A stretch of 64,000 nt of DNA from a virus (IMGVR_UViG_3300026263_000200); one strand, 5' to 3'. Shown: positions 1 to 64,000, numbered from the stretch's first letter. The notes: generated by a model not told the origin, from the letters alone. Translations and numbers: made by a program.

Positions 1-1
1 A

Positions 2-1420
2 GAAAGATTTACTATTTGCAAACTACCTAGACAATCAGGTAAATCAACAACAACAATTGCATACTTATTACACTATGCAATATTTAATCCAAATTCAAAC
101 ATAGCTATTCTTGCCAATAAATCTTCTACTGCTAGAGATATATTAGGAAGATTACAATTAGCATATGAAAACTTACCAAAATATATACAACAAGGTGTTA
201 TCAATTGGAACAAAGGTAATATAGAGTTAGAAAATAAATCAACTATTATAGCGGCTGCTACATCTTCAAGTGCAATAAGAGGTGGTTCATTTAATATAAT
301 ATTTCTTGATGAGTTTGCTTTCGTACCTGCTAATATTGCTGAACAATTTTTTAGTTCAGTTTATCCTACTATTACATCTGGTAAAACTACAAAGGTTATT
401 ATTGTATCAACACCTCACGGTATGAATCAGTTTTATAAATTATGGACAGACGCTGAAAATAAAAGAAATGATTATGTACCAATTGAAGTACATTGGTCAG
501 AAGTTCCAGGTAGAGATGAAAAATGGAAAGAAACAACTATACGTAATACATCACAGGAACAATTCCAACAAGAGTTTGAGTGTGAATTTTTAGGTTCAGT
601 AGATACGTTAATCTCACCAGTAAAAATTAAAGCAACACCTTATATGACACCATTAACTTCAAGTGGTGGTTTAGATGTATTTGAAAAAGTTGTAAATGGT
701 AGAAATTATGTGGCTACTGTTGATGTAGCAAGAGGTGTAGATAGAGATTATTCAGCATTTTTAATATTTGATGTAACTCAAATGCCTTATAGAGTTGTTG
801 CCAAATATAGAAGTAATGAAGTTAAACCAATTTTGTTTCCACACTTAATACAAAAAGCGTGTAAGGGTTATAATAAGGCAGATATTCTTTGTGAAACAAA
901 TGATATAGGTCAACAAATAGGTGAATCATTAAACTATGAATTAGAATATCCTAATCTATTAATGACTACTCAAAGAGGAAGAGCAGGTCAGATATTAGGT
1001 GCTGGTTATAGTGGAAGAGGTTCTGGTTTCGGTGTTCGTATGACAAAACAGATTAAAAAAATTGGTTGTTCTAATATTAAGACATTAATTGAAGGCGATA
1101 AAATGGTTATAAATGATTTTAATATCATAGAAGAAATGTCAACTTATGCTCGTAAAGCAAATTCTTGGCAGGCAGAAGAAGGTTGTAATGATGATTTAAT
1201 GACTTGCCTTGTATTATTTGGATGGTTATCCAATCAACCTTATTTCAAAGAAATGACTAATACTAACGCCAGACAACAATTATATGAAGAACAAGAAAAA
1301 TTAATAGAGCAAGATATGGCACCTTTTGGTTTTGTAGATGATGGAACACCTGAATGGGAAAAACCAGAAGTAGATGAATATGGTACAGTCTGGCACCCAG
1401 TTGTTAGAAAAGGGTTATAA
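2..1420 (+). CDS. g17: Terminase large subunit gp17 (5' end lies outside the window)
   Basis: Frame is open from nt 2 (ERFTICKLPRQSGKST Walker A; IIFLDEFAF Walker B) into the listed 422..1420 ORF; nuclease motifs VDVARG and NDDLM; directly upstream of the sheath gene. Confidence 0.95.
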   Translation, partial: ERFTICKLPRQSGKSTTTIAYLLHYAIFNPNSNIAILANKSSTARDILGRLQLAYENLPKYIQQGVINWNKGNIELENKSTIIAAATSSSAIRGGSFNIIFLDEFAFVPANIAEQFFSSVYPTITSGKTTKVIIVSTPHGMNQFYKLWTDAENKRNDYVPIEVHWSEVPGRDEKWKETTIRNTSQEQFQQEFECEFLGSVDTLISPVKIKATPYMTPLTSSGGLDVFEKVVNGRNYVATVDVARGVDRDYSAFLIFDVTQMPYRVVAKYRSNEVKPILFPHLIQKACKGYNKADILCETNDIGQQIGESLNYELEYPNLLMTTQRGRAGQILGAGYSGRGSGFGVRMTKQIKKIGCSNIKTLIEGDKMVINDFNIIEEMSTYARKANSWQAEEGCNDDLMTCLVLFGWLSNQPYFKEMTNTNARQQLYEEQEKLIEQDMAPFGFVDDGTPEWEKPEVDEYGTVWHPVVRKGL

Positions 1421-1431
1421 ATTACGCTTAT

Positions 1432-1439
1432 TATAAATA
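1432..1439 (+). promoter_or_regulatory. T4-type late promoter TATAAATA (g18)
   Basis: Exact gp55 consensus in the intergenic region upstream of g18. Confidence 0.8.
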
Positions 1440-1533
1440 TCCATAGTAATGAAATTTGACTATGGTCGTATGAAAACATACGGAATATGTGAATATAAAG
1501 AAGTTAATTAGCTAATTATAAGGAGAAAACCTA

Positions 1534-3453
1534 ATGGCATTTCAAGTATCACCAGGTGTTCTCGTACAGGAAAAAGACTTAACAAGAATTATTCCTGCCG
1601 TTTCATCTTCTTCTGGAGCTTTTGCTGGAACTTTCAGTAAAGGACCTCTTGATGAAGTTATAAGTATCGGTAGCGAATCTGATTTGGTATCAACGTTTGG
1701 GAAACCAGATAACTCTAATTTTGAGAGTTATTTTAGTGCCTCAAACTTCTTGCAATACTCAAATAACTTGAAAGTAGTTCGTGTACAGAATTCATCTGTT
1801 TCAAACGCAACTGAAAGTGGTAGTTCGTTTGTAATAAAAAATACTACTGATTACCAAAACAACTATGCTGACGGTTCTGCTTCTGTAGGAATGTGGGCTA
1901 GTAGAACAGCTGGAGATTGGGGAAATAATTTAAGTATTTCTCAATGTCCTTCTGCTACTGCTTACGAAGAAATTAACAAAACAACTGTTGCTGACGCTTC
2001 AACAAGTGTCGGAGATACAGTAGTTTCAGTTACTTCTGCTACAGGAATAAGTGCTGGAGATATAGTTAACTTTGGTGATGAATATGAATATAGAGTTATT
2101 AGTATATCAACTAATGACTTGAACATTGTACGAAAAGAAGAACCTTCTTATTATGGTACTTCTGACTCATCTGGATTACAAGCGACAATTACAAATGGCG
2201 CTCAAGTAAGACGTAGATGGAGATATTATGATTTATTTAACAAGGCACCAGGAACATCTACTTACGCTCAAACAAGAGGTGGTAGTAATGACGAAATGCA
2301 TATTGCAATCGTTGATGAAGACGGTGGAATTAATGGCGTTAAAGGCGATATACTAGAAAAATTTGAAGCAGTTTCAAAAGCTTCAGATGGTAAATCACCT
2401 CAAGGCGACAGTAATTACTATTCAGACGTAATTTACAAATCAAGTAATTATGTTTATTGGATGGATCACAATTCTTCTGGTTCAAATTGGGGCACGGCGG
2501 CAGCTGGAACAACTTATACAGACGTAACTGCTATAAGTGATGTATCATTAATAAATGGTGCAAACGGTTCAGCAGCAACTACTGCTCAAACTAAAACTGC
2601 TTATGAAAAATACCAAGACGCTGAAACAACAGACGTTGGTCTTTTAATTGCAGGTTCAGGTGACGCAACACATATAGATAACTTAATTACAATCGCTGAG
2701 AAAAGAAAAGACGTAGTAGTTTTTGCTTCTCCAGAGAGAAGTGATGTAGTTAATGTATCAAATTCAAATACGCAAAAAGATAATGTTATAAATTTCTTTA
2801 ATGGAATTTCTTCATCTTCTTATGTGTTCTTTGATAGTGGATACAAATATATGTACGATAGATATAATGATGTCTATAGATATGTTCCTTTAAACGGAGA
2901 TATGGCTGGACTAGCGGCAAGAACCGATATGGTTGCTGACGCTTGGTATTCACCTGCCGGTTTAAATAGAGGTATCGTTAGAGGTGCAGTTAAACTAGCA
3001 TTTAATCCAACACAAACACAAAGAGATGAATTATACAGAGCAAGAGTAAATCCTGTGACTACGTTCCCAGGACAAGGAACTGTATTATTCGGTGATAAAA
3101 CTGGATTATCAAATCCTAGTGCATTTGATAGAGTTAATGTCAGAAGATTGTTCATAATTTTAGAAAAGGCAATTTCAACTGCTTCTAAAGTCCAACTATT
3201 TGAATTCAATGATGAATTCACTAGAGCTGGTTTTAGAAATATGGTAGAACCTTTTTTAAGAGAAGTACAAGGACGAAGAGGGATTACAGACTACCTAGTA
3301 GTTTGTGATGAAACTAACAACACAGGCGAAGTAATAGATAGAAATGAATTTGTAGCAGAAATTTTTGTAAAACCTGCTAGAAGTATCAACTTTATCTCAT
3401 TGCAATTCGTTGCAACAAGAACAGGCGTTTCTTTTGAAGAAGTCGCAGGATAA
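1534..3453 (+). CDS. g18: Tail sheath protein gp18
   Basis: MAFQVSPGVLVQEKDLT start; WYSPAGLNRG, FDRVNVRRLF, FEFNDEFTR, KPARSINFI motifs. Confidence 0.97.
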   Translation: MAFQVSPGVLVQEKDLTRIIPAVSSSSGAFAGTFSKGPLDEVISIGSESDLVSTFGKPDNSNFESYFSASNFLQYSNNLKVVRVQNSSVSNATESGSSFVIKNTTDYQNNYADGSASVGMWASRTAGDWGNNLSISQCPSATAYEEINKTTVADASTSVGDTVVSVTSATGISAGDIVNFGDEYEYRVISISTNDLNIVRKEEPSYYGTSDSSGLQATITNGAQVRRRWRYYDLFNKAPGTSTYAQTRGGSNDEMHIAIVDEDGGINGVKGDILEKFEAVSKASDGKSPQGDSNYYSDVIYKSSNYVYWMDHNSSGSNWGTAAAGTTYTDVTAISDVSLINGANGSAATTAQTKTAYEKYQDAETTDVGLLIAGSGDATHIDNLITIAEKRKDVVVFASPERSDVVNVSNSNTQKDNVINFFNGISSSSYVFFDSGYKYMYDRYNDVYRYVPLNGDMAGLAARTDMVADAWYSPAGLNRGIVRGAVKLAFNPTQTQRDELYRARVNPVTTFPGQGTVLFGDKTGLSNPSAFDRVNVRRLFIILEKAISTASKVQLFEFNDEFTRAGFRNMVEPFLREVQGRRGITDYLVVCDETNNTGEVIDRNEFVAEIFVKPARSINFISLQFVATRTGVSFEEVAG

Positions 3454-3473
3454 TTTAGGGGAGAAATAAAACA

Positions 3474-4001: not shown

Positions 4002-4008
4002 AAACTAC

Positions 4009-4016
4009 TATAAATA
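4009..4016 (+). promoter_or_regulatory. Late promoter TATAAATA (g20)
   Basis: Exact consensus followed by AAGGAG RBS. Confidence 0.8.
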
Positions 4017-4042
4017 GTAGTGATATTTTAAGGAGATAAATT

Positions 4043-5928: not shown

Positions 5929-5930
5929 AA

Positions 5931-6422: not shown

Positions 6423-6423
6423 T

Positions 6424-14193: not shown

Positions 14194-14730
14194 ATGCCAG
14201 GAATTAGAATTAAAAAAAAACCAGAACATTATGTAAATAATAAAGAATTTTTTGCTGCTATGGTGGACTATAAAAAGTCTGTTAATAAAGCGAAAAGATT
14301 AAAGCAAAATAAACCAGTTGTACCAGACTACGTTGGTGAGTGTTTTTTAAAGATAGCGAATCATTTATCCTTTAGACCAAATTTTATAAACTATACTTAT
14401 CGGGACGATATGATAAGTGATGGTATTGAAAACTGTTTACAGTATCTTGATAACTTCAATCCTAAAAAAACTAATAATCCTTTTGCTTATTTCACACAAA
14501 TTATCTATTATGCTTTTGTACGGAGAATACAGAAAGAGAAAAAACAAACAACTATTAAACACCGTATGATTCAAAACGCAAACTATGATGATATGACTTT
14601 GCAACCAGGAGAAGATGGAGAATTCAAAAATCAATTTACAGAATTTCTACGTAAGAATATACCAGCGGAAGAACCAGTTAAGAAAACAACACCTAAAAAG
14701 AAAAAGAAAATAGTTAAGAAGAAAAAATAA
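14194..14730 (+). CDS. g55: Late transcription sigma factor gp55
   Basis: HYVNNKEF, CFLKIANHLS, DMISDGIENC, NPFAYFTQIIYYAFVRRIQKEKKQ. Confidence 0.96.
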   Translation: MPGIRIKKKPEHYVNNKEFFAAMVDYKKSVNKAKRLKQNKPVVPDYVGECFLKIANHLSFRPNFINYTYRDDMISDGIENCLQYLDNFNPKKTNNPFAYFTQIIYYAFVRRIQKEKKQTTIKHRMIQNANYDDMTLQPGEDGEFKNQFTEFLRKNIPAEEPVKKTTPKKKKKIVKKKK

Positions 14731-14735
14731 TTATT

Positions 14736-16304
14736 ATGAAGAGTGATAAGATTTTAATAGTCGGCGGAGGTTCTGCTGGCTGGATGACTGCTGCTACTTT
14801 AATTAAAGCATTTCCAAATAAAGATATAACAGTAATAGAATCACCAAATATACCAACTGTTGGTGTTGGTGAAAGTACAATATCAAAAGTTAAACAATGG
14901 ACAAAATTTTTGGGCATTGATGATAAAGAATTTTTAAAACATACAGATGGCACTATTAAGTTTAGTATTAAGTTTACAGACTTTAATGGAAAAGACGAGG
15001 CGGCATTTCATTATCCTTTTGGTCCAATTAGAACAGACGGAACTCAATTAAAGTATAATGATTGGTGGATGAAAAAAGAATTTTATCCAGAAACACCTGT
15101 TTCAGATTATGCTGATAGTTTTGCTCCTAATATGGCATTAGTTAATCAAGGTAAAGGTGCTTTCAACTTTCACGGTTTTGAACTTGACCGAGATTCTGCT
15201 TATCAGTTTGACGCAACTAAATTTAGTATATGGTTAAGAGACCATTATTGTTTACCAAGAGGTGTTAAACATATACAAGAAGATATTATTGATGTGCCTA
15301 CAGATGAGAATGGTATCAAGTGTGTAGTTACAAAAACATATAGTTACTATGCAGATTTATTTGTTGATTGTACAGGTTTTAAATCAATGCTTTTAGGTGG
15401 TGCATTAAAAGAACCTTTTGAAACTATACAAAATCTACCAAACAATAAAGCGTGGGCAACTAAAATTCCTTATGTTGATAAAGAAAAAGAAGTAGAGTGT
15501 TTTACCAATTGCACAGCAATAGAGAACGGTTGGGTGTGGAACATACCATTATGGAGTAGAGTTGGTACAGGTTATGTTTATTCAGATAAATTTGTAGATG
15601 ATGAAACTGCTTTAAAAGAATTTAAAAATCATTTAGCAGGTGTACGACCTGGTTTTGGTAATGAAGAACACGAATTTAGAAACATTACAATGAGAACTGG
15701 TATACACAAAAGATTATTTGTTAAAAATGTTGTTGCTATAGGACTATCTGCTGGATTTATTGAACCATTAGAGAGTAATGGTTTGTTTTCAGTACACGAA
15801 TTTTTAATGATGTTAGTAAGAAATTTAAGAAGAGGTGAAATTACACGTTGGGATAAAGATAACTTTACGTTTGCTTGTAAATCTATCTTTAAAGGATTTG
15901 AGGAATTTGTTGGTTTGCATTATGCATTATCAACAAGAAATGATACACCATATTGGAAAGCAAATAATGAAAAAGTATGGGAAGAAAGTTTATATACTTT
16001 TAAACCTAAAATTATGTTAGGATATTTACAAGCTGCTTTACAAAGAAATATGGCGTCGGAGTTTCCTGTTGATCCTACAGATAGACCAGGTAAATATGGA
16101 TTGCATTATATAGCAGCTGGTTTTAATTGGTGCCCAATGGATTTACCTAACTTAATAAATCTAACACATAAGAGTGAACAAGAAATAAGAGAACGTATGG
16201 AACCATTTATAAAGAAATTAGATGAACGCAAACAACAATGGAATAAAGAAGTTGAAAAGTTTCCAAGTTATCACGATTTTATACAGGAGAATTATTACAA
16301 GTGA
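14736..16304 (+). CDS. Tryptophan halogenase family flavoprotein
   Basis: GGGSAGWMTA, VGVGEST, FVDCTGF, GWVWNIPL (WxWxIP), FIEPLESNG. Confidence 0.9.
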   Translation: MKSDKILIVGGGSAGWMTAATLIKAFPNKDITVIESPNIPTVGVGESTISKVKQWTKFLGIDDKEFLKHTDGTIKFSIKFTDFNGKDEAAFHYPFGPIRTDGTQLKYNDWWMKKEFYPETPVSDYADSFAPNMALVNQGKGAFNFHGFELDRDSAYQFDATKFSIWLRDHYCLPRGVKHIQEDIIDVPTDENGIKCVVTKTYSYYADLFVDCTGFKSMLLGGALKEPFETIQNLPNNKAWATKIPYVDKEKEVECFTNCTAIENGWVWNIPLWSRVGTGYVYSDKFVDDETALKEFKNHLAGVRPGFGNEEHEFRNITMRTGIHKRLFVKNVVAIGLSAGFIEPLESNGLFSVHEFLMMLVRNLRRGEITRWDKDNFTFACKSIFKGFEEFVGLHYALSTRNDTPYWKANNEKVWEESLYTFKPKIMLGYLQAALQRNMASEFPVDPTDRPGKYGLHYIAAGFNWCPMDLPNLINLTHKSEQEIRERMEPFIKKLDERKQQWNKEVEKFPSYHDFIQENYYK

Positions 16305-20532: not shown

Positions 20533-21139
20533 AGTAGTAAAAGATTTTTTACCACAACCTCTTTTTAAATTTATAAAAGATTATGTTGAAGACGAAAAAG
20601 TATCTTGGAAATGGCAAGATAATTCAACATATCATAAAGATACAGCAGCGGTTAAAGCGGATAAAATGTTTAAGTTTGGTAAAACAATATATACACACCC
20701 TGCTTTAAATCCAGAGAATAAAGAATTTATAAATGAAAAATATATGTCTATATTTGGAGTGTTTGTAGACTTTCAAAACGAACATCAAAGTCATAAAACA
20801 GAACATTTAATTAAAATGAAATTAAATTTATATCCAAATGAAGGTAAACAAGTACAACACGGAACACATAAGGATATATATTCTGCTCATATTCCTTTGA
20901 GTCCAAAACATATGACTCGTATGGGTGAAGATGTTTTAGATAAAACTACCTTAACTTCTGTATTTAATTTTCATACTTGTAATGGTTATACTTGTATTGG
21001 AAAAGAAAAGATACCATCTGTTGCTAATCAGATAGTAATATTTAATCAAACTGAACATTATGGAGTTACTCAATCAGATATTCCAAGAAGAATAGTATTT
21101 AATATGAACGTAAGTATAAATGAAAAAACTAACAAATAA
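20525..21139 (+). CDS. Putative 2OG-Fe(II) oxygenase-like protein
   Basis: HGTHKD (HxD), NGYT, ANQIVIF..HYG..RIVFNMN. Confidence 0.65.
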   Translation: MIKVVKDFLPQPLFKFIKDYVEDEKVSWKWQDNSTYHKDTAAVKADKMFKFGKTIYTHPALNPENKEFINEKYMSIFGVFVDFQNEHQSHKTEHLIKMKLNLYPNEGKQVQHGTHKDIYSAHIPLSPKHMTRMGEDVLDKTTLTSVFNFHTCNGYTCIGKEKIPSVANQIVIFNQTEHYGVTQSDIPRRIVFNMNVSINEKTNK

Positions 21140-22271
21140 AACTGATACAATGAATGCTTTAGAAGCATTTGGTGTAGAAACAACAGGTGATGAACTTATT
21201 ACAAGTAAGGGCAATCTAAAAGGTGTTGTTCAAGATGAAGAGGAATTAAACTCTAATATTGATATGATATATGAGTATTGGAAGAAGAGAGGATTTCCTT
21301 ATTATGCTACAGATAAACAGTATAGAGAAGCACAGTTTAAAACATTACAATCTACAGATTTCAAAGGATTATTAACGCAAGATAAAGTTATAAAACCGAA
21401 TCAGACAGGTCTATCTTTAGCTTGGTCGTATATGCCACATAGTTTTGGTATACGTTGTGGTAAAATGAGAACTCCTATGGAGATATATGAAAATGAAGAA
21501 CACTTTAAAAAAGGTATTAAAAAATTATTAACAGGCAGTTTCTTTGGTAAACAATCAGTAGATACTTTAATGCCTATTGCAAGTAATTTAGATGGAGAAA
21601 TAACTGAAATATCTCCTGAATCAAAACACAAATCAGAAAGTGTTATGAGGTCTTTATTAAGAAGATATACAGGAACTCAATGTGTATCTAATTTTAGACC
21701 TACAGCAGCGGCGTGTTTATATTCACACTTTGCCCACCCAGGTGCTATGGTATGGGATATGTCAATGGGATATGGTGGTCGTATATTAGGTGCAATTATA
21801 TCAGATATTAACTATGTAGGTACTGATCCAGCTGAATTAACATTTAAAGGTTTAACTGAAATTAAGAAAGATTTTGGTAGAGAGAATAGACATTACTTTT
21901 TAAACAAGTGTGGTAGTGAAGTATTTGAACCTAAAGAAAATACATTAGATTTTGCATTTACAAGTCCACCTTATTTCAATTGGGAACAATATGGTGAAGA
22001 AGAAGGACAATCATTTAATCAATATAGTGGTAATGAAGAGTGGAACAATGGCTTTTTAAGAAAGACTATACAAAATGCATATAAAGGATTAAAGAAAGAT
22101 AAGTATATGGGTTTAAATGTAGCAAACATTAAATCACATAAGACTTTTGAAGATGATACAGTACGAATCGCTGTAGAAGAAGGATTTACACACACGGATA
22201 CTTACAAATTACAGTTATCCTCGCAAGAATCTGGTGCAAAATATGAGCCAGTTTTCATATTTCAGAAATAG
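21120..22271 (+). CDS. DNA amino-methyltransferase (SPPY type)
   Basis: SNFRPTAA, WDMSMGYGGR (SAM binding), FTSPPYF (catalytic). Confidence 0.8.
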   Translation: MKKLTNKTDTMNALEAFGVETTGDELITSKGNLKGVVQDEEELNSNIDMIYEYWKKRGFPYYATDKQYREAQFKTLQSTDFKGLLTQDKVIKPNQTGLSLAWSYMPHSFGIRCGKMRTPMEIYENEEHFKKGIKKLLTGSFFGKQSVDTLMPIASNLDGEITEISPESKHKSESVMRSLLRRYTGTQCVSNFRPTAAACLYSHFAHPGAMVWDMSMGYGGRILGAIISDINYVGTDPAELTFKGLTEIKKDFGRENRHYFLNKCGSEVFEPKENTLDFAFTSPPYFNWEQYGEEEGQSFNQYSGNEEWNNGFLRKTIQNAYKGLKKDKYMGLNVANIKSHKTFEDDTVRIAVEEGFTHTDTYKLQLSSQESGAKYEPVFIFQK

Positions 22272-34616: not shown

Positions 34617-37106
34617 ATGAACTTTTATAAAAATGTAATAGAACATAAAGGCAAACTACTTGTTAGAGGTGTAAGAGATAGCAAAGAGTTTAAAGAGAGG
34701 ATTAATTTTTCTCCAACATTATATTCAGTATCACAACATCAAGAAGAATTTAAATCATTACAAGGACATAATTTAAGACCTATTACTTTTTCATCTATTG
34801 ACGCTGCTCGTAGATTTAAACGTGATGTTGCTACTCAAAATGCACCTGTTTATGGACTTGATAGATTTCATTATCAATACATCAATGAAGAGTATCCAAA
34901 ACAAGTTAAGTGGTCAAAAGAATTAATTAAAATATTTACATTAGATATAGAATGTACCTGTGAAAATGGATTTCCAGAAGTAAATAATCCAATTGAAGAA
35001 CTATTATGTATTACAGTTAAGAATCAATCAAACAAACAAATTATAACGTGGGGTATCGGTGAGTTTAAAACCTTACGTACAGATGTAACTTATATTCAAT
35101 GTACAGATGAACGACATTTAATAATGGAGTTTATGAAATTCTGGTTGAAGAATTATCCAGATGTTATTACAGGTTGGAATACTAAATTCTTTGACTTACC
35201 TTATTTAATGAATAGAATTCAATTAGTTGCAGGTGCTAAAGTTTCAAATAGAATGTCGCCTTGGAACATAATTCATAAAGAAGAAATAATTGTAAGAGGT
35301 AGACCTAATACATATTATTCATTGTATGGAATTGCAATGTTAGATTATCTTGATTTATATAAATGGTTTATACCAGTAAGACAAGAGAGTTATAGACTAT
35401 CTCATATAGGTGAAGTAGAACTAGGCGAAACTAAAATAGAAAATCCATATGATACTTTTAAAGATTTCTATACAAAAGATTATCAAAAATTTGTAGAGTA
35501 TAATATTCAAGACGTTGAAATAGTTGATGGTTTAGAAGACAAGTTAGGTCTAATTGATTTATCTTTAACCTTTGCATATGAAACTAAAGTAAATTATAAC
35601 GATATTTTTTCACAGGTAAGAGTTTGGGATACATTAATTGCAAACCACTTGATGACAAAAAAGATTTGTGTACCACCTAGGGAAGACCACATAAAGGACA
35701 CCAAGTATGAAGGTGCGTATGTGAAAGAACCTAGATTGGGTATGCAAAAATGGGTGGTGTCTTTTGATATCAACTCTCTTTATCCACATATTATTGTACA
35801 ATATAATATTTCTCCCGAAAAGATATTAGGTGTTAAACCATCTGGTGTTTCTGTGAATAAAATGCTTGATAAGAAGACACCCCTAGATTATTTAAAAACA
35901 GAAGGTGCGTGTATAACACCTAACGGTGCAATGTTTAAAAATGATAATCAAGGTTTCTTACCTGAAATGATTGAAAAGATTTATAAAGACCGTGTGATAT
36001 ATAAGAAACGTGAATTAAAAGCAAAGAAAGAATATCAAAATAATCCAACAACAGAATTAAAAAAAGAAATTGCTAGGTGTCATAACGTACAATGGGCAAG
36101 AAAGATTGCGTTGAATAGTTGTTATGGTGCAATAGGTAATCAATACTTTAGATACTATGATATAGCACAAGCAAGTGCTGTAACTACAGCAGGTCAATAT
36201 ATTATAAGAAATATAGAACAAAAAGTAAATGAATATCTAAATCAAATATTACAAACACACAATGAAGTAGATTATATATTAGCGTCTGATACAGATTCAA
36301 TTTATGTATCGTTTGATAAACTTGTAGAGAAGACTTGTAAAAATAAAACAGACCAACAAGTATGTGATTTTCTTGCTAAGGTATGTGATAATAAATTAGA
36401 ACCTTTTATTGCAAAACAATTTGAAGATGTTGCAGATTATACTAACGCATTTAAGAACGCAATGGTTATGGCACGTGAAGTTATTGCGAACAAAGGTATA
36501 TGGGTTGCGAAAAAAAGATATATGTTAAATGTATTAGACGAGGAAGATGTGAGATTATCTGAACCTAAATTAAAGATTATGGGTATAGAGGCAATTAAAT
36601 CTTCAACTCCACAAGTATGCCGAGGTAAGATTAAAGAAGCAATTAAAATAATTATGTCAAAAGAAGAATCTGATTTACATACTTTCATTGCAGATTTTAA
36701 AAAAGAATTTATGCAATTACCTCCAGAGAAGATATCATTTCCAAGGTCTTGTAATAATATGAGAAAATATGGTAGTAGTAAAGATGTGTTTATTAAAGGC
36801 ACACCTATACACGTTAAGGGTGCATTGATTTATAATCATCAAATAAAACAATTTAAATTACAGAATAAGTATCCTTATATTCAAGAAGGAGATAAGATTA
36901 AATTTATTAAATTGTTAGAAGCAAATCCATTTAAGTTTGATGTGATTAGTTATGTAACTCAATTACCAAAAGAGTTTAACTTAAAAGAATATGTTGATTA
37001 TGAATTACAATTTGAAAAGACTTTCCTAGACCCTATGAGATTTATATTAAATTCAATAGGTTGGGAACACGAAAAGAAAGCAAGTCTGGAGGCGTTCTTT
37101 GGCTAA
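34617..37106 (+). CDS. g43: Family B DNA polymerase gp43
   Basis: DIEC exonuclease, SFDINSLYP, KIALNSCYG, SDTDS, KKRY; C-terminal clamp-binding SLEAFF. Confidence 0.98.
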   Translation: MNFYKNVIEHKGKLLVRGVRDSKEFKERINFSPTLYSVSQHQEEFKSLQGHNLRPITFSSIDAARRFKRDVATQNAPVYGLDRFHYQYINEEYPKQVKWSKELIKIFTLDIECTCENGFPEVNNPIEELLCITVKNQSNKQIITWGIGEFKTLRTDVTYIQCTDERHLIMEFMKFWLKNYPDVITGWNTKFFDLPYLMNRIQLVAGAKVSNRMSPWNIIHKEEIIVRGRPNTYYSLYGIAMLDYLDLYKWFIPVRQESYRLSHIGEVELGETKIENPYDTFKDFYTKDYQKFVEYNIQDVEIVDGLEDKLGLIDLSLTFAYETKVNYNDIFSQVRVWDTLIANHLMTKKICVPPREDHIKDTKYEGAYVKEPRLGMQKWVVSFDINSLYPHIIVQYNISPEKILGVKPSGVSVNKMLDKKTPLDYLKTEGACITPNGAMFKNDNQGFLPEMIEKIYKDRVIYKKRELKAKKEYQNNPTTELKKEIARCHNVQWARKIALNSCYGAIGNQYFRYYDIAQASAVTTAGQYIIRNIEQKVNEYLNQILQTHNEVDYILASDTDSIYVSFDKLVEKTCKNKTDQQVCDFLAKVCDNKLEPFIAKQFEDVADYTNAFKNAMVMAREVIANKGIWVAKKRYMLNVLDEEDVRLSEPKLKIMGIEAIKSSTPQVCRGKIKEAIKIIMSKEESDLHTFIADFKKEFMQLPPEKISFPRSCNNMRKYGSSKDVFIKGTPIHVKGALIYNHQIKQFKLQNKYPYIQEGDKIKFIKLLEANPFKFDVISYVTQLPKEFNLKEYVDYELQFEKTFLDPMRFILNSIGWEHEKKASLEAFFG

Positions 37107-37107
37107 T

Positions 37108-37251
37108 ATGTTTGACGCATTTGCAGTTGCTATGGCAATAGTATTTGCTTATAGAACAGGAGAAGTTTTAGCAATGACTAAAATGAAATTTGCAACACTA
37201 GTATTATGGTTGTTTGTAATAAAATTTATATCGGTAATGTATGTTAATTAA
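37108..37251 (+). CDS. Small hydrophobic protein (47 aa)
   Basis: MFDAFAVAMAIVFAY...LVLWLFVIKFISVMY; fills the gap; read manually. Confidence 0.5.
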   Translation: MFDAFAVAMAIVFAYRTGEVLAMTKMKFATLVLWLFVIKFISVMYVN

Positions 37252-38296
37252 TGAAGAAAGTTTAAAACATTTAAAAACACTTGAAGACAATACGTTTGAT
37301 TCGTGTGTAACTGATCCACCGTATCACTTGGCGTCTATACTTAAACGATTTGGACCAGGTCAAAAAGGTATTAATAATAAAGATGAGAAAGAAGGTCGTA
37401 ATGGACCTTATCATAGAGCGGCAAAAGGATTTATGGGACAGACTTGGGATGGTGGTGATATAGCATTTAATAAAGATTTTTGGAAAGAAGTATATAGAGT
37501 TATGAAACCAGGTGCAGTACTACTATCTTTTGCTGCCACTAGAAACTATCATAGAATGGCAGTTGCAGTAGAAGACGCTGGGTTTGAAATATTTGATATG
37601 ATACAATGGTTATATGGTAGTGGTTTTCCTAAAAGAAAAAACTATTTAAAACCTGCGTGTGAACCTATTGTAATGGCACGTAAGGGTGTTAATAAAAATT
37701 TAAACATAGATGAGTGTAGAGTGCCTGGATATCAATGGGACACAACTAAAAACAGAAGAGAACCTAAAAAACATAAAGAAGCAATTTACAAATTAGGTTT
37801 AAAGAAAGCAGGTACAGGAGAAAAAATAGATGGTAGATATCCTGCCAATGTTATACACGATGGATCAGATGAAGTGATTGAAAGTTTTCCTAAACAAAAA
37901 ACAGCAGGACATTGGCCGAGTGTTAAAGTTACAGGATATGGTAATATGGGTAGAGAAGTAGGTGGACAAAAGACAGCGAAAGAAGAATACTTTGGTGCAG
38001 GTCCACAAGTAAGAGAAGATGGTTCAGTTGCAAGATTTTTCTATTGTGCTAAGGCAAGTAAAAAAGAAAAATCAGATACAAAACACCCTACAGTTAAACC
38101 ATTAGAGTTAATGAGATATCTTGTTAAGTTAGTTACACCTAAAGATGGAACAGTATTGGATCCATTTGCAGGTACAGGTACTACTGGTGAAGCGGCGTTA
38201 TTAGAAGGTCGTAAGTATTACTTGATAGAAAGAGAAAAGAGTTATTTTAAAGACATAGAGAAGAGATTAAAGAAAGTGAATCCGTTTTTTGTATGA
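37241..38296 (+). CDS. DNA methyltransferase, N6-A/N4-C beta class
   Basis: VTDPPY precedes HPTVKP and VLDPFAGTGTT. Confidence 0.92.
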   Translation: MLINEESLKHLKTLEDNTFDSCVTDPPYHLASILKRFGPGQKGINNKDEKEGRNGPYHRAAKGFMGQTWDGGDIAFNKDFWKEVYRVMKPGAVLLSFAATRNYHRMAVAVEDAGFEIFDMIQWLYGSGFPKRKNYLKPACEPIVMARKGVNKNLNIDECRVPGYQWDTTKNRREPKKHKEAIYKLGLKKAGTGEKIDGRYPANVIHDGSDEVIESFPKQKTAGHWPSVKVTGYGNMGREVGGQKTAKEEYFGAGPQVREDGSVARFFYCAKASKKEKSDTKHPTVKPLELMRYLVKLVTPKDGTVLDPFAGTGTTGEAALLEGRKYYLIEREKSYFKDIEKRLKKVNPFFV

Positions 38297-38368: not shown

Positions 38369-39598
38369 ATGAAAAACCTAGACCTTAAACAATTCGCAGA
38401 CGAAAATAGATTGCCTATTATGGACTCTATTCAATTTAAAAATTGGACAGATGAAATAGGTAAAGAAAAATTTAGAGAACTATTATCAGAATATATTGCT
38501 GAACATAGACCAGAATTTCCTTTAAATCATATTTCATATGATGATATGAAAAACAATATAATACAATTAAGTAAATTTAATACTAGTAAAATTTGTATAC
38601 CTAAAGAACAAAGTCATAAAGATGTCTTTGAAAAATATGATGACTATAAGTATCCATATTCAAAATATGGTTTAGGAGTAATTGACGCTTCTTCAATATA
38701 TAATAAGTGCAGTAATTATTTTCATCAAGAGTTAAGATTAAATTGTTCAAGTTATAGTTTTAGAGCACCAATTGAAGTTTTTAAAAATGGTAATGCAAAA
38801 GATATATGGAAGTGTTTAGGTGCATTATGGAGAGGTGTGAATAGTAGTAAAGATTTATCGCCAGGTAGTTATAGAGAAGCAATAAGATTGGGTACATATA
38901 TTGCAACACAATTTAAACCAGTTGTTGCAAAAACAATATACGATATGACCGAGGCAGAAACAGTATTAGATACGAGTTGTGGTTGGGGAGATAGACTTGC
39001 TGGTTTCTTTGCCAGTAATGCAACACATTATTATGGTTGTGATCCTAATCCAAATACATATAAAATATATCAGAAACAGATAGAAGAATATAGTAAATTC
39101 TTTAAAAACAAAACTGTTAAGATATGGAATTGTGGTGCAGAAGATTTACCTTATAACGAACTACCAGAAATAGATTGTGCATTTACAAGTCCACCTTACT
39201 TTAGTACTGAACAATATAATAAAGGTGGTGAGAAAGAAGAGAATCAATCTTGGTTTAAGTTTAATGAGTATGAGCAATGGAGAGATAGTTTTTATCTTCC
39301 AGTTGCAGAAAAGACAATGAGTAAATCAAAATATATGTTTGTTAATATTATGGATCCAAAGATTAAGGGTACTAGATATAGGTCAAGTGATGAACTAGTT
39401 GATAGATTTAAAGATAAGTTTTTAGGTCAGATTGGTATGAGGATTATGCAAAGACCACAAGGTACTAAAAAATTTAAAACAAAAGAAGAGTTAAATACGT
39501 TTATGGCAATGACATATATTGAAAATGTATGGTGTTTTGGAGAGAAAACAGACTTATTTAAACACGCAAGAGTAGGGACGTTAGACGCATTTATATAA
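38369..39598 (+). CDS. DNA amino-methyltransferase (SPPY type), same family as ORF 21120
   Basis: TQFKPVVA, LDTSCGWGDR, FTSPPYF. Confidence 0.8.
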   Translation: MKNLDLKQFADENRLPIMDSIQFKNWTDEIGKEKFRELLSEYIAEHRPEFPLNHISYDDMKNNIIQLSKFNTSKICIPKEQSHKDVFEKYDDYKYPYSKYGLGVIDASSIYNKCSNYFHQELRLNCSSYSFRAPIEVFKNGNAKDIWKCLGALWRGVNSSKDLSPGSYREAIRLGTYIATQFKPVVAKTIYDMTEAETVLDTSCGWGDRLAGFFASNATHYYGCDPNPNTYKIYQKQIEEYSKFFKNKTVKIWNCGAEDLPYNELPEIDCAFTSPPYFSTEQYNKGGEKEENQSWFKFNEYEQWRDSFYLPVAEKTMSKSKYMFVNIMDPKIKGTRYRSSDELVDRFKDKFLGQIGMRIMQRPQGTKKFKTKEELNTFMAMTYIENVWCFGEKTDLFKHARVGTLDAFI

Positions 39599-47154: not shown

Positions 47155-49887
47155 ATGAAGTTTAAAGAATTTTTATTACAAGAAGGTATATATGACCCAG
47201 GTATATTTAAGGCCTTCTTTATGGCAGGAGGACCTGGTAGTGGTAAATCATTTATCGCTAATAATACTTTTGTAGGTTCTGGATTAAAATTTGTAAATTC
47301 AGACCAAGTATTTGAAAGAGGTTTAAAGAAGGCAAATCTTTCAGATAAAATGCCTGACCAAGAAAAATATTTTAGAGATATTATAAGAAATAATGCAAAG
47401 GGTACAACAAAAAGACAATTAGATACTTATGTAACTGGTAGATTAGGTTTAGTTATTGACGCAACTGGAAGAGATTATGGAAGAATAAGTGCAGAATATA
47501 ATCAACTACACTCATTAGGTTATGATTGTTATATGATATTTGTTAACACAACATTACCTGTTGCGTTAGAAAGAAATCAAATTAGAAGTAGAACTATACC
47601 AGAATATATTGTTAAATCATCTTGGGAAAAAGTACAATCTAATATAGGTAAGTTTCAAAGATTATTTGGTCAATCAAATTTTATTGTAGTAGATAACAAT
47701 AGGTCAGATAAAGAACTAGTGTCACAAACTTTACAAAACTGTGACAGATTAGTTAGACGATATATGAGGCAGCCAATTAAAAGTTATCTTGCAAAAACTT
47801 GGATGGCAAAAGAAAAAATGTACAAAAATAAATTAAATGAAAGTATTATAGACGCTCCTAGAAATACATATGCACCTGGAGTTTTTGATGACTATGAAAC
47901 TAAAACACCTAGAATTAAACCTGGTGTAAGAGAAATAATTGACAATCAACTTAAAGAATTTGGTAAAGAATACCCGATTATAAAAGTTAGTTTAGTAGGT
48001 TCTATACTTACAAAGAGATATAGAAAGGACGCAGATTTAGATTTTAATGTACTGTTTGATGTACCTGTAGATAAACAAGAAGAAGAGAGATTAAGATTAT
48101 CTCATAAGTATCTATCTGCTAAAAGTCCAGAAAAGATTAATGGTAAATTAATACCTGGTACACAACACCCTATTAACTATTACATCATTACTGATCCTAT
48201 AACTCATCAAGACCAAGAGGATAAAGCAGACGCAGTATTTGATTATAGAGGTAATGTATTTACTAAAAGACCAGCAGACTATACGTTTGATATGAAATTA
48301 TATATGTCAGCATATCAAAGAAAGGTACAAGAGATAGATGTAGTTAAAGGAGAATTAAAAAGAGATATTATAGACTATGATGAACTAAAAGATTTACAAC
48401 CAGATGATATTTTAAATTTACAAGAAAAGATTAATGAGAAGTTAGAAGAGATTGAACAATCTATAAAAGATATTGTTGATATTGGAGATGATGTAATGAC
48501 TGCTAGAAGAGCAGCGTTTGATTCTGATATGACACCAGAACAAATTAAAACGTTTAGTATTAAAAATAGATTACCTAAAAATGTAGTCTATAAGATGTTA
48601 GAGAAGTATCATTATTTAAAATTCTATAAGAAATGTAAAGAGATATTAGATGATAATAAAGTTACAGACGCTGAAATAGATAGTTTAAAATCTGAAGCAG
48701 TTGCTGATAAGTCTATTGCAATTACATTTGGAAGATTTAATCCTCCTACAATAGGTCACGAAAAACTTATTAATAAAGTTGTAAGAGCAGATAGAAATTA
48801 TAAAATCTATATCAGTAGGTCAGAAGATAGTAAAAAGAATCCATTATCTCCTAGAGATAAATTATCCTTTATGAAAAAAATGTTTCCACAATATGCTAGA
48901 AACATTGAAATCAATACAACAAATATGATTTTAGATTTAGCTACTATGTTATACAATAAAGGTCATACTATTTTAAAATTTGTTGTAGGTAGTGATAGAG
49001 TAAGAGAATTTGAAACGATACTTAAAAAATATAACGACCAGAAAAATAGACACGGATACTATAACTTTAAAACAATAGATGTTATATCTGCTGGAGAGCG
49101 TGATCCAGACGCTGAGGGTGCTTCAGGTATGAGTGCGAGTAAGATGAGGGATGCTGCTACTAAAGATGATATAGCGTCATTTAAGAGAGGACTACCATCT
49201 CAATTTAGAGATGTTGATGGACTGTTTAAAGCGGTCAGAAAAGGTATGGGTATAAGAGAAGACTATAAACCAGATACTTCAAAACCTGTTATGACATTAG
49301 GACAGTTTGAACAGAAACAAGTTAGAGACCTATACGTTAGGGAGATGATATTCAATATCGGAGACCAAGTCAAGTATCTTAAAGAAGATAAACAAGGTAA
49401 GGTAGTACGAAGAGGTACGAACTATGTTGTACTAGAAGATACAAATAATAATTTACACAAATGTTGGATATGGGATTGTATTCCAGTTGCCGCTGATAAA
49501 GAACCATTGTTGAGAGAATATAACCTAGACATTGATTACGGATTTGAAGCAGTTGAAACGATACCAGTACCAAAAACATACTCACAAATTAAAGATAGTT
49601 TTGAAATAGGTGCTGATTATGCTAATCATTGTAAGCAAATGACACCAGGAGAGAAAGAGGACGCACCTCCTGTTGACTCAAAAGACCGTGGAAAACCTAC
49701 TGATACATACATATCACGACCAGGTAAGGCAACGGATGCTAAAGTTGGTGAGGATAAATTGACCGAGAAGGAAGTAAAAGAATGGTCAACTTCAGTTTCA
49801 GTAATAGATAAATATAAGGAACGATATAAAGAAGAGTGGAAAGCGAAACTAAATGAAGTAGTCGCTAAGATGATAGAGAAACTTTAG
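47155..49887 (+). CDS. Multidomain protein: P-loop kinase + Pol-beta-type nucleotidyltransferase + (T/H)xGH cytidylyl/adenylyltransferase
   Basis: AGGPGSGKS..NSD..VIDATG; LVGSI..DADLD; FGRFNPPTIGH..VGSDR..SASKMR. Confidence 0.8.
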   Translation: MKFKEFLLQEGIYDPGIFKAFFMAGGPGSGKSFIANNTFVGSGLKFVNSDQVFERGLKKANLSDKMPDQEKYFRDIIRNNAKGTTKRQLDTYVTGRLGLVIDATGRDYGRISAEYNQLHSLGYDCYMIFVNTTLPVALERNQIRSRTIPEYIVKSSWEKVQSNIGKFQRLFGQSNFIVVDNNRSDKELVSQTLQNCDRLVRRYMRQPIKSYLAKTWMAKEKMYKNKLNESIIDAPRNTYAPGVFDDYETKTPRIKPGVREIIDNQLKEFGKEYPIIKVSLVGSILTKRYRKDADLDFNVLFDVPVDKQEEERLRLSHKYLSAKSPEKINGKLIPGTQHPINYYIITDPITHQDQEDKADAVFDYRGNVFTKRPADYTFDMKLYMSAYQRKVQEIDVVKGELKRDIIDYDELKDLQPDDILNLQEKINEKLEEIEQSIKDIVDIGDDVMTARRAAFDSDMTPEQIKTFSIKNRLPKNVVYKMLEKYHYLKFYKKCKEILDDNKVTDAEIDSLKSEAVADKSIAITFGRFNPPTIGHEKLINKVVRADRNYKIYISRSEDSKKNPLSPRDKLSFMKKMFPQYARNIEINTTNMILDLATMLYNKGHTILKFVVGSDRVREFETILKKYNDQKNRHGYYNFKTIDVISAGERDPDAEGASGMSASKMRDAATKDDIASFKRGLPSQFRDVDGLFKAVRKGMGIREDYKPDTSKPVMTLGQFEQKQVRDLYVREMIFNIGDQVKYLKEDKQGKVVRRGTNYVVLEDTNNNLHKCWIWDCIPVAADKEPLLREYNLDIDYGFEAVETIPVPKTYSQIKDSFEIGADYANHCKQMTPGEKEDAPPVDSKDRGKPTDTYISRPGKATDAKVGEDKLTEKEVKEWSTSVSVIDKYKERYKEEWKAKLNEVVAKMIEKL

Positions 49888-58460: not shown

Positions 58461-58461
58461 A

Positions 58462-58763: not shown

Positions 58764-58838
58764 ACACAATATATACCTTAGCAGGTGTTGTTGCAGTACT
58801 AACAATTGTTATAGTTATAAGTATTTTTATAATTGTTT

Positions 58839-60467: not shown

Positions 60468-60491
60468 CTAGTATATTTAGTACAGATATTT

Positions 60492-60499
60492 TATAAATA
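60492..60499 (+). promoter_or_regulatory. Late promoter TATAAATA for the csgF operon
   Basis: Exact consensus in the 55-bp divergent gap. Confidence 0.75.
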
Positions 60500-60522
60500 T
60501 ATACATCAACGAGAGAGAGAAA

Positions 60523-60981: not shown

Positions 60982-62135
60982 TGTTTAAATACATAAGTAT
61001 ATTTTTACTAACATTATTGTTAGTTGGATGTGCAGGTAAACCAAAGTTTGATATAAGAACTCAAACAGTTGCTTATAAAGACTTGTCAGTTATATCAGCA
61101 CCGAAAGGTGAACCAATTATAATTGCTGTCTATGACTTTTTAGATATGACAGGACAAAAGAAACCTGGTGGCAACTTTGCGTCTATGAGTACAGCAGTAA
61201 CTCAAGGTTCATATCAGTTGTTGATTAAAGCATTACAAGACGCAGGCGAAGGCAAATGGTTTAGAGTAGTAGAACGAGCAAGTTTACCAAGTCTATTACA
61301 AGAAAGAAAATTAATACGTTCTACAAGACAACAAGTTAATGGAGAAGGTGCAGAACCATTACCACCATTACTATTTGCAGGTGCATATATAACAGGTGGT
61401 ATTGTAGGATATGATAGTGATATTAAATCAGGTGGTTTAGGTGCTAGAATATTAGGTATTCAAAGCAACAAACAATTTAGACAAGATATAGTTACTATTA
61501 TATTAAGACTAGTCAATGTACAAACTGGTGAAGTTGTACTATCAACAACAGTTGAAAAGACTATTGTATCAACAATGACTGGTGGAGATATATTCAAGTA
61601 CTTTGATACTGATACAATGTTATTAGAAGTTGAAGCAGGATATGCTAAGAACGAACCAGTTACACTTGCAGTTAGAAAAGCAATTGAAAAAGGTGTAGTT
61701 GATGTTATTAATTTAGGTGCAAATAAAGGACTATGGGAGTTTGCTGTTGAAATAGTACCAACAAAAGATTTAAAAGTAGTACAAGATGATATTACAGTTG
61801 ATATGGGCGAAGTAATGCCAGAAAAAACTTATGAAGACTTTAAGAAAGAAAAGAAAGCTAGAAAAGAATTAAAGAAAGCACAAAAACTTGAAGTAAAAAA
61901 TTATAATAAAGCAAATGGAACAAAGTTTAAAACTTGGGACGAATATCAAGCACATTTAGAACATTTAGCGGCACTTGAAGCTAAAGAAATAGAAAAAGAA
62001 GAACGTAAGAACGGTATACAAGATAAAATAACAGAAGAAGAAGAGTGGAACCAAGTAGACGAAACAGTAGAGGAGAACAAGTCAGATGAAAAAGATAGTA
62101 ATGGCAATAGTGATTCTTCTAGCGACAACAATTAA
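60981..62135 (+). CDS. csgG: Curli secretion channel CsgG-like lipoprotein with charged C-terminal extension
   Basis: Lipobox LVGC; IAVYDFLDMTGQKK, STAVTQG, WFRVVER, LLQERKLIR, GGIVGYD, NEPVTLAVRKAIE. Confidence 0.92.
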   Translation: MFKYISIFLLTLLLVGCAGKPKFDIRTQTVAYKDLSVISAPKGEPIIIAVYDFLDMTGQKKPGGNFASMSTAVTQGSYQLLIKALQDAGEGKWFRVVERASLPSLLQERKLIRSTRQQVNGEGAEPLPPLLFAGAYITGGIVGYDSDIKSGGLGARILGIQSNKQFRQDIVTIILRLVNVQTGEVVLSTTVEKTIVSTMTGGDIFKYFDTDTMLLEVEAGYAKNEPVTLAVRKAIEKGVVDVINLGANKGLWEFAVEIVPTKDLKVVQDDITVDMGEVMPEKTYEDFKKEKKARKELKKAQKLEVKNYNKANGTKFKTWDEYQAHLEHLAALEAKEIEKEERKNGIQDKITEEEEWNQVDETVEENKSDEKDSNGNSDSSSDNN

Positions 62136-63177
62136 TTGTTTCGCAGGTAATTCAGTTTATATCCAACAAGATAATCAAGACAGCGACGGATCAATCTTTA
62201 TAAAACAAGATGGTTCAGGTAATACTTTTGGGTATTCAACATCATATCCATTTAAAGTAAGTGGAGAGAACATCACAATCGTTATAAAACAAATAGGTGA
62301 TAATAATAAAACAGATTATTCAAATCACTTGACTTTTTATGGTGAGGATATGACTTTAGATTATACAGCAACTGGTGATGGTAATAAATTAAGAATAGAT
62401 AGTGATGATACGGATGCTACTGGACATTATTTAGACCACGATATTACAGGTGATTCAAATGTAGTAGATTATGATACCTGGGGAGATGATTCAACAAATT
62501 TCAATGTTGATTTAGATATTACTGGAGACTCAAATACATTTTGGGTACAGAATAGAGGAGATAATCACTTCTTATATGTTCTTATATCAGGTGATAGTAA
62601 TACCGTAGAGTGGTATAGTACAACAGATTCAGTAGGGTTTAATACAAACTCTAACAAGGCAATTGGTCCACAATCAACATCACACGGACAGTTTGCAGAC
62701 AGTTCAGGTAGTGAAGGTGCAAGTGCAGACATTTATATTATTGGTAACTCAAATGTAATACATACTTCAACATATGGTACAGGTAACTATCAACTACACG
62801 ACATTATAGGTTCTTCAAACCTTTTAGATATACACTCTAGTTACACTGGTTCTGATACAGACCCATATGGAGACTCAATGATTATATCAGGCGATAGTAA
62901 TTATTTAAGGACTTATATATCTGGTGATAGTAATACAATAAGATTACATATGGCAGGTGGAAATAATACTGCTAAAATTTATCTTTATACAGATAGTTCA
63001 GTAATAAACTTTGCTCAAACAGGTGGTGGCAACACAGGTCAAGTTACTATATCAGGTGATTCAATTTACGATTACACATTAAACTTTTCACAAAATGGAT
63101 CCGATAATTGTACATATTCGTACAACAGAAACAATCAAACAGCAGATGTAACTGCTACAGTATCAAACGGATGTTAA
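62086..63177 (+). CDS. Secreted curlin-like repeat (beta-solenoid) protein
   Basis: Signal peptide; repeated Q.G..N and (I)(T/S)GDSN units; D/S/G/N/T-rich. Confidence 0.7.
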   Translation: MKKIVMAIVILLATTINCFAGNSVYIQQDNQDSDGSIFIKQDGSGNTFGYSTSYPFKVSGENITIVIKQIGDNNKTDYSNHLTFYGEDMTLDYTATGDGNKLRIDSDDTDATGHYLDHDITGDSNVVDYDTWGDDSTNFNVDLDITGDSNTFWVQNRGDNHFLYVLISGDSNTVEWYSTTDSVGFNTNSNKAIGPQSTSHGQFADSSGSEGASADIYIIGNSNVIHTSTYGTGNYQLHDIIGSSNLLDIHSSYTGSDTDPYGDSMIISGDSNYLRTYISGDSNTIRLHMAGGNNTAKIYLYTDSSVINFAQTGGGNTGQVTISGDSIYDYTLNFSQNGSDNCTYSYNRNNQTADVTATVSNGC

Positions 63178-64000
63178 ATGAAACTATTTCATAATCCTTG
63201 GGAAAAATGGGCGATAATAATTTGTGTTACTGTATTATTAGTATTAGGAATATCATCAGCTAAATCTCAAATAACAAGTCCAAAAGTTGGCGAAGTCATA
63301 GGTCAAATGGGTACGACTTGGAATGAAAGAGAAGGATCAACTCAAAATACCTCAATGGGTTATGAGTTGCAGATGAATGACTTTTTACAAACAGGTGAAG
63401 ATGGTGGTATGATATTATCTTATGTTGATAATACTAAATTTACAATGGGACCAAATACAGAATTAACTATTGATGAATTTGCTTTTGATACTTCTGTTGT
63501 ACCAATAGAAATTGCAATGAACATATCGGTTAATGTTGGTACATTTACATATGAATCAGGTCAAGTATCTACATTAGGTGGAGAAGTTAATATTAATGCT
63601 GGTAATGCTACAATTACAGTACAAGGTACTGCTTTTTCAGGTACGGTAACATCTTCAGGTCAAGCAACTATTACTTTGTTGCCAGATAGTTCTGGTGCAG
63701 TAGGACAAGTAACTGTATCCAATGACGCAGGTTCTCAAACAATAACTAACGCTTACAATTCAGTAACCGTTTTATCAAATGACTTAGCACCAACACCTCC
63801 AAAAATAGAAACTAATAAACAAGATATTATTGAGTTAGATGAATTTGAAGAAGAAATAAAAGATGAAAGTCAAAAACATTTTGGTGATATGGATTCAAAA
63901 TCTGAAATGTCTAAAGAAGAATCTGAAGCACAGGAGATGGAAGAGGCAATCATAAATGAAGAAGTAAGTATAGTAGAAGATAGTAATACAATTGTTGCTA
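63178..64000 (+). CDS. FecR-domain periplasmic protein (runs off the window end)
   Basis: Read manually: N-terminal hydrophobic segment, DFLQTGEDG...DNTKFTMGPNTELTIDEF...ATITVQGTAF, then an acidic region. Confidence 0.8.
   Translation, partial: MKLFHNPWEKWAIIICVTVLLVLGISSAKSQITSPKVGEVIGQMGTTWNEREGSTQNTSMGYELQMNDFLQTGEDGGMILSYVDNTKFTMGPNTELTIDEFAFDTSVVPIEIAMNISVNVGTFTYESGQVSTLGGEVNINAGNATITVQGTAFSGTVTSSGQATITLLPDSSGAVGQVTVSNDAGSQTITNAYNSVTVLSNDLAPTPPKIETNKQDIIELDEFEEEIKDESQKHFGDMDSKSEMSKEESEAQEMEEAIINEEVSIVEDSNTIVA

Follow-up and report, generated by a model that had tools for sequence, protein, structure and literature searches.

Phages have long been known to avoid restriction sites and to carry orphan methylases. 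In GATC-free, Twort-like Staphylococcus phages, four-base palindromes have been lost synonymously (palindrome avoidance), and Staphylococcus phage Alsa_2 has 0 GATC in 50 kb. Orphan anti-restriction methyltransferases include Dam of phages T4 and P1 and the multispecific C5 methylases of Bacillus phages SPbeta and phi3T. Modification of GGATC by AlwI/BinI-type systems, or of GGATCC as in the BamHI system, overlaps GATC and blocks GATC cutters. Here we describe a stretch of viral DNA, IMGVR_UViG_3300026263_000200 (positions 1–64,000; the whole of these 64,000 nucleotides is called the window below), in which GATC survives only as GGATC or GATCC. We weigh whether a putative phage adenine methyltransferase, encoded in a variable slot immediately downstream of the DNA polymerase gene, shields the surviving sites. 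The window combines avoidance with a putative methylase shield in a form legible in the DNA itself: survivors spell a longer word, and that word differs between sister lineages.

Like the Twort-like phages, the window has synonymously lost four-base palindromes, here GATC, CATG, TCGA, CGCG, and CCGG. Unlike them, its loss of GATC depends on one flanking base, GGATCV occurs at expectation, and the spared word changes between sisters. The enzyme proposed here would resemble T4/P1 Dam and the SPbeta/phi3T enzymes as a phage methylase without a partner nuclease that shields phage DNA, but its inferred target (GGATS or GGATSC) covers only part of the attacked word, so that partial shielding would be joined to purging of the remainder, and the candidates here are known from their genes. 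The recognition words of the AlwI/BinI and BamHI systems equal the spared words GGATC and GGATCC, a likeness of word and not of compared sequence. M.AlwI is a two-domain protein, whereas the candidates here are single-domain beta-class enzymes or MT-A70 enzymes of ~180 amino acids (aa), with no partner endonuclease present. In marine metagenome-assembled genomes, GATCC, GATGG, and SATC were reported as methylated motifs with no assigned enzyme (Hiraoka et al. 2022, PMC8919816), so such marks exist in this environment. The first of these, methylated in marine microbes, reads as the spared word on the opposite strand, but it was found in a gammaproteobacterial genome and not in a SAR11 phage.

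The exact count was 50 GATC in 64,000 bases, comprising GGATCA (17), TGATCC (17), GGATCC (7), CGATCC (5), AGATCC (3), and GGATCG (1), in agreement with an earlier reading of the sequence alone (the original prediction) that roughly 50 sites occur, every one as GGATC or GATCC. Expectations for the window were obtained by permuting synonymous codons within each of the 73 called genes in 300 shuffles. HGATCD was observed 0 times against 64.7 ± 6.4 expected (shuffle minimum 46), and the spared class, GGATC or GATCC, 50 times against 65.7 ± 5.4. The shortfall in the spared class came wholly from GGATCT/AGATCC (3 observed vs 24.6 expected), with GGATCA/TGATCC (34 vs 29.9), GGATCC (7 vs 5.8), and GGATCG/CGATCC (6 vs 5.4) all at expectation. 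Because GGATCT was depleted while GGATCA, GGATCC, and GGATCG were normal, the spared word is GGATCV and not GGATC. The original prediction had anticipated the loss of HGATCD alongside near-normal survival of GGATC and had missed the purge of GGATCT. It had also noticed that Asp before a C is written GAC in preference to GAT, and codon usage bears this out: the window uses GAT 959 times and GAC 368 times overall, but before a C-initial codon, where the preceding base was not G and the next two bases were not CC, the counts were GAT 0 and GAC 48. Where G preceded, they were GAT 7 and GAC 0, and before CC they were GAT 24 and GAC 21.

The same footprint extended to the relatives of the window. 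The window encodes a tail sheath, a gp20 portal, a gp46-like nuclease, and a gp43 polymerase, which mark it as a T4-like myovirus, and by sequence it belongs to the T4-like pelagimyophages, ocean phages of the SAR11 type. The window has 31.4% G + C, with almost all genes on the + strand. The T4-type DNA polymerase gene (gp43; 34617–37106, + strand; PHROG 262, E = 5.9e-303) adjoins the methylase slot and served as the anchor gene. Its product is 74% identical to that of the closest isolate, Pelagibacter phage Mosig EXVC030M, and the two portals are 86% identical. The nearest record, G001 (67 kb, 87–92% DNA identity to the window), contained 60 GATC, all GGATC or GATCC, with HGATCD at 0 vs 80 expected. 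G002, a complete 177-kb relative with terminal repeats in the same clade (clade A), had observed/expected values of 0/212 for HGATCD, 15/14 for GGATCC, 80/83 for GGATCA, 11/13 for GGATCG, and 15/63 for GGATCT; its GGATCT survivors were mainly TGGATCTT. HGATCD, CATG, and TCGA in the window all lay far under codon-preserving expectation, and the data support the purge as synonymous-site selection acting lineage-wide across the clade. One otherwise rule-abiding clade-A contig (L017, 9111–14018) had five AGATC[AG] sites, all within its last 5 kb, which suggests that this end segment was recently acquired.

Other words were purged as well. In the window, CATG (0/91 observed/expected), TCGA (1/74), CGCG (0/11), CCGG (2/17), and CTGCAG (0/14) were purged without exemption, and GATGC/GCATC, CTWAG, CAGAG, CATCG, CACTG, GAGAC, and AGGCT were strongly depleted. 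CATG was also at 0/582 in G002, with both strands counted. No flanking-base exemption was seen for CATG, TCGA, or CCGG, and flank tables for AGCT, GGCC, GCGC, and TGCA gave no clean one-base exemption. Six further words did carry one in the window, G002, and Mosig: GATGC and CTAAG were spared after G, CATCG and CAGAG after C, and CTCAG and GAGAC before C. For GATGC, the window held 14 GGATGC and 4 other GATGC against expectations of 9 and 78. The corresponding observed counts were 40 vs 10 in G002, 20 vs 13 in Mosig, 18 vs 0 in G003, 4 vs 0 in G006, and 3 vs 2 in G005. As GATGC persists as GGATGC in every genome that purges GATGC, GGAT is the common element. That GATGC obeys the same G-before rule as GATC, and that additional restriction-type words have one-base exemptions, went unseen in the original prediction. 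No single mark accounts for all of these exemptions; a general CC/GG mark is ruled out by the purging of CCGG (2/119 in this comparison) and AGGCT despite their CC/GG, and the sparing of CTAAG after G does not fit it. Some spared words stood above expectation (GGATCC 19 vs 6.6 in Mosig and 19 vs 8 in G003; GGATGCT 33 vs 9.6 in G002), and this excess is greater than protection alone predicts. Sister lineages also differed in other purged words: clade A had 0 CATG and normal ACGT, Mosig had ACGT at 0/235 and normal CATG, and across loci L012–L091, Mosig, and G003–G006 lineages purged one or the other, or both (G003 and G006).

We compared the GATC footprint with the methylase inventory across SAR11 phages using codon-shuffle counts and profile matches to methylase families. 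The sister genomes were G005 (109 kb, 76% complete), G003 (109 kb, 59%), G006 (56 kb, 30%), and the 141-kb genome of the isolate Mosig; the SAR11 podophages HTVC019P and HTVC010P share their host strain with Mosig. All 19 GATC in Mosig were GGATCC (6.6 expected), the other 15 NGATCN hexamers being at 0 vs ~276, and MT-A70 was the only DNA methylase family detected. G005 likewise had MT-A70 only, with HGATCD at 0/149, GGATCC at 10/7, and no GGATCH. G003 had MT-A70 plus two enzymes with an SPPY catalytic motif (SPPY1 and SPPY2, described below), with HGATCD at 0/148, GGATCC at 19/8, and GGATCH at 9/96. In G006, where SPPY1 and SPPY2 were seen, HGATCD was at 0/92, GGATCC at 1/3, and GGATCH at 0/38. 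G002 had only SPPY1, SPPY2, and an enzyme with a DPPY motif. HTVC019P contained no PF01555, PF05063, PF02086, or PF00145 gene and had GATC at 0/85 and GGATCH at 0/31, with GATGC unpurged. HTVC010P had GATC at 131/122 and unpurged GATGC, and contained no PF01555 or MT-A70 gene (D12 and C5 families were not searched). GANTC was at 6/75 in HTVC019P and ACGT at 3/34 in HTVC010P, and both podophages purged CGCG, CCGG, GGCC, and GCGC.

Across phages of one host group, the exemption thus came in three breadths, with nothing spared, only GGATCC spared, or GGATCV spared. These grades tended to follow the methylase, with no exemption in methylase-less HTVC019P, GGATCC only with one MT-A70 clade (WB), and GGATCV with a second MT-A70 clade (WA) or DPPY, among lineages that are related, with SPPY2 alleles that co-vary and with exceptions in locus L417 and the G006 group. 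That the no-exemption grade belongs to a phage without a methylase counts against a nuclease that ignores GGATC and for a phage-borne shield. The spared subset is therefore likely to be a shielded subset and not a blind spot of the nuclease. The alternative offered in the original prediction, a host enzyme that reads HGATCD, is weakened by the GGATCC-only sisters (Mosig, G005, and G003) and by HTVC019P, which spares nothing.

As originally predicted, the window encodes three DNA methyltransferases, two of which are related SPPY enzymes. The slot gene (37241–38296, + strand) encodes a 351-aa beta-class N6/N4 DNA methyltransferase with DPPY at residue 25 and a PF01555 match (E = 1.3e-39) across residues 20–340, and it has the beta-class layout, with motif IV near the N-terminus and the SAM-binding motif I near the C-terminus. 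Its Protein Data Bank (PDB) sequence matches were CcrM, a methyltransferase named DpnA, M.RsrI, M.MboIIA, and M.PvuII, over the C-terminal SAM-binding part, and it scored 75.5 bits against the CcrM-type equivalog NF050803, whose cut-off is 830. SPPY2 (409 aa; 38369–39598, + strand) has SPPY at residue 276, weak PF01555 and Methyltransf_25 matches, motif I preceding motif IV, and an N-terminal extension of ~190 aa, and is probably an N4-cytosine enzyme. Its paralogue SPPY1 (383 aa; 21120–22271, + strand) has SPPY at residue 281 and a weak PF01555 match, and the two are 28% identical. Homologues of SPPY1 at 71–76% identity occur on contigs with few or no GGATCH. PDB sequence searches with SPPY1 and SPPY2 returned no match. 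Their distant homologues at 27–31% identity, in Staphylococcus phage Alsa_2, Bacteroides phage DAC16, and a Vibrio phage, showed no GGATC rule and are too distant to inform. In Mosig-type genomes, two DruA-like (PF14236) genes replace SPPY2 and SPPY1 by position (Mosig 14385–15683; L044 13953–15047); homology between the SPPY and DruA-like proteins was considered and rejected (profile-profile probability 0.1). The RGCY words AGCT, GGCC, and AGCC/GGCT were all at 0.32–0.45 of expectation in the SPPY-bearing genomes (window, G002, and G003, with GGCC at 0.61 in G003). In SPPY-less Mosig and G005, GGCC and AGCC/GGCT were near 1 and AGCT was at 0.6–0.7. RGCY is the most frequent N4-methylcytosine (m4C) motif reported in marine Myoviridae-like genomes (PMC8919816).

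In relatives, the slot gene was either of DPPY type or the ~180-aa MT-A70 enzyme, the latter matching PF05063 over cut-off with a DPPW motif (110 bits in L019 and 92 bits in L044). In clade B the MT-A70 gene was complete and began at a non-ATG codon; it was absent from clade-A G002. In the MT-A70 tree, WA and WB separated as two deep clades (support 100/99). The MT-A70 genes of GGATCH-tolerant loci were without exception WA, and the GATC-purged WB loci had 3 GGATCH in 39 loci. On three polymerase backbones, WA at ≥80% identity accompanied zero HGATCD together with surviving GGATCH; these backbones were clade A, L045/L392 (2 sites per 10 kb), and L415/L418–L420 (5–12 sites per 10 kb). L045/L392 contained a DruA-like gene in place of SPPY2 and no SPPY2 within the ~10-kb contig. 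DPPY slot genes occurred on two backbones, clade A and an intermediate group (polymerase ~65% identical), both of which retained some GGATCH; the intermediate group kept 15 GGATCH in 57 kb vs 2 in ~110 kb for its WB neighbours. All Mosig survivors fit the one word GGATSC, and clade-A survivors fit GGATS, except GGATCT. Raw locus counts had hinted that GGATCT depletion was tied to the DPPY allele, but after identical contexts were collapsed the DPPY loci (A 44, T 5) and WA loci (A 33, T 6) did not differ. From these sequence comparisons, the slot methylase appears to be a better correlate of the exemption than the SPPY pair, and the DPPY enzyme is most likely the best candidate for a GGAT-type mark in the window.

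We tentatively propose that a GATC-directed nuclease, met when infecting SAR11-type hosts, would exert strong selection leading to synonymous loss of GATC. A phage adenine methyltransferase would modify the adenine of GGAT within a GGATS-type word (GGATC or GGATG), allowing GGATC sites to be tolerated, and through this mark GGATGC would also escape a GATGC/GCATC-directed nuclease. The slot gene would make the mark, as DPPY in the window and as WA in close relatives; in sister lineages the WB enzyme would leave the narrower GGATSC footprint (GGATCC and GGATGC), with those of WA and DPPY being broader. Because enzymes of the MboI/DpnII type do not cut GATC that is methylated on one strand, marking the GGAT strand would by itself be enough. 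The only DNA methyltransferase detected in Mosig belongs to MT-A70, an adenine-methylase family, and the Mosig survivors fit GGATSC, which supports an adenine mark. Taken whole, with nuclease pressure on GATC, synonymous purging, and GGATC shielded by a slot adenine methyltransferase, we give this explanation a little less than an even chance.

Several observations weigh against it. Locus L417 has WA (81% identity) and no GATC in 6 kb, the support from L045-type loci rests on 2 sites, and in G006-type fragments (22–30% complete) GGATGC and some GGATCC persist although no slot methylase was seen. SPPY2 alleles are also split by tolerance, those of G003/G006 (87–100% identical to that of G003) being non-tolerant and those of clade A and the intermediate group (75–80%) tolerant, and common descent confounds every one of the correlations. 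Within clade A the model also requires DPPY beta-class and MT-A70 enzymes, which belong to unrelated families, to recognise the same word, and a plain GGATS mark fails to explain the purge of GGATCT. CTAAG is spared after G in G005, which has MT-A70 only, so some exemptions may have a cause other than a methylase. Among cultured phages, the DPPY enzyme has its nearest homologues in those of alphaproteobacteria (≤46% identity), making GANTC the default guess for its specificity. The idea that a GANTC methylase could be read from the footprint was considered and dropped, as clade A does not purge GANTC whether or not the slot holds a DPPY gene, which leaves the footprint uninformative here. Lastly, neither DpnII (PF04556) nor MutH/Sau3AI (PF02976) was found over cut-off in any of 401 Pelagibacteraceae genomes, other nuclease families not having been tested.

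The best surviving alternative keeps the shield and assigns it to the SPPY pair, which would methylate ATCC at N4 of cytosine (GATm4CC and GCATm4CC), perhaps with one enzyme for each strand, the site being asymmetric. An SPPY motif generally points to an N4-cytosine methylase, ATCC lies on one strand of both spared words (GATCC and GCATCC), and an asymmetric site suits a paralogous pair. The SPPY2 allele split runs in step with tolerance, and the G006-type fragments show the GGATGC exemption where SPPY genes alone were seen. In addition, m4C motifs dominate marine Myoviridae-like genomes (PMC8919816). Nevertheless, G003 and G006 contain both genes (71–76% identical) and purge GGATCH, while Mosig and G005, with no PF01555 gene, keep GGATCC and GGATGC. 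L045/L392 keep GGATCH with a DruA-like gene at the SPPY2 position, and SPPY2 homologues of 64–65% identity occur on contigs with unrestricted GATC. The presence of SPPY2 as cause of the exemption had fitted the polymerase-centred loci and failed once G003 and G006 were shown to have both genes. A purge with a shielded subset, as originally predicted, is supported by the sister-lineage differences and by HTVC019P; the accompanying assignment of the shield to the SPPY enzymes is not supported, and we judge it unlikely.

A second alternative dispenses with a phage mark and makes the flanking context a property of the nuclease, either one reader of HGATCD or a different GATC enzyme in each host population, so that differences among lineages would reflect host range. 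The exemption of GATGC after G is constant whatever the methylase set, CTAAG is spared in G005 as noted above, and there are at least seven one-base exemptions for just three methylase genes, all of which would fit. This explanation is hard to reconcile with HTVC019P, which shares its host strain with Mosig and has purged GGATCH completely, and with three breadths of exemption among phages of one host group. Further, we know of no restriction enzyme that accepts every flanking base except G on both sides. We regard a markless purge as improbable.

A third possibility, which we hold to be similarly improbable, is that the purge did not arise from host restriction. The cutting nuclease would come from the phages themselves or from competing phages, with self-avoidance during degradation of host or rival DNA, or else the shield would be a modification made without a recognisable methyltransferase. 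SAR11 has been described as almost free of restriction-modification (PMC7029224, PMC9516812), and the contrast between that picture and the total purges in its phages is itself notable. SAR11 DNA avoids neither GATC (316/307) nor CATG (178/175), although it does avoid GANTC (109/203), and purges are total, as would be expected were the genome exposed at every infection. The lack of DpnII and MutH/Sau3AI genes in the 401 genomes also favours a source outside the host and leaves the host nuclease of the original prediction with no GATC endonuclease family found. Those two families were equally lacking in the phages G002, G003, G005, Mosig, and HTVC019P, however, so that the phage methylase genes, which have catalytic motifs, appear as orphans, and HTVC010P, from the same host, has normal GATC. 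Also against this possibility, 26 of the 401 SAR11 genomes contained D12 (Dam-family) methylases, in some cases within cassette-like arrangements with tandem methylases and open reading frames (ORFs) without a family match. G204 contained a D12 + N6_N4 tandem, the single-cell genome G070 two tandem D12 genes with a 542-aa ORF, and the single-cell genome G111 a Dam-subfamily gene over cut-off with a 265-aa ORF. In all, ORFs of 182, 265, 455, and 542 aa without a family match adjoined Dam-family methylases (L311–L314; SAR11 single-cell genomes G271, G204, G111, and G070), and it is possible that these ORFs are unrecognised endonucleases. On the same side, a 2026 preprint reported restriction-modification genes to be enriched in strain-specific SAR11 genomic islands (10.64898/2026.04.03.716430).

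Among the replication genes of the window we also observed a tryptophan-halogenase-like gene (PHROG 2928; 14736–16304) and a 910-aa ATPase-cytidylyltransferase fusion (47155–49887).

For the biology of these phages, it is possible, though on present evidence doubtful, that small MT-A70 and beta-class methylases of one hypervariable slot are sequence-specific adenine methylases (GGATS/GGATSC) whose specificity can be read from the footprint, and that SAR11 or its phage community exerts intense multi-site nuclease pressure through unrecognised families. If so, N6-methyladenine (m6A) would be expected at GGATCC and GGATGC in Mosig grown on HTCC1062, a cultured pair. A phage genome would then record both its cutters and what its own methylases protect, and the methylase specificities of uncultured ocean viruses would be predictable from sequence alone.

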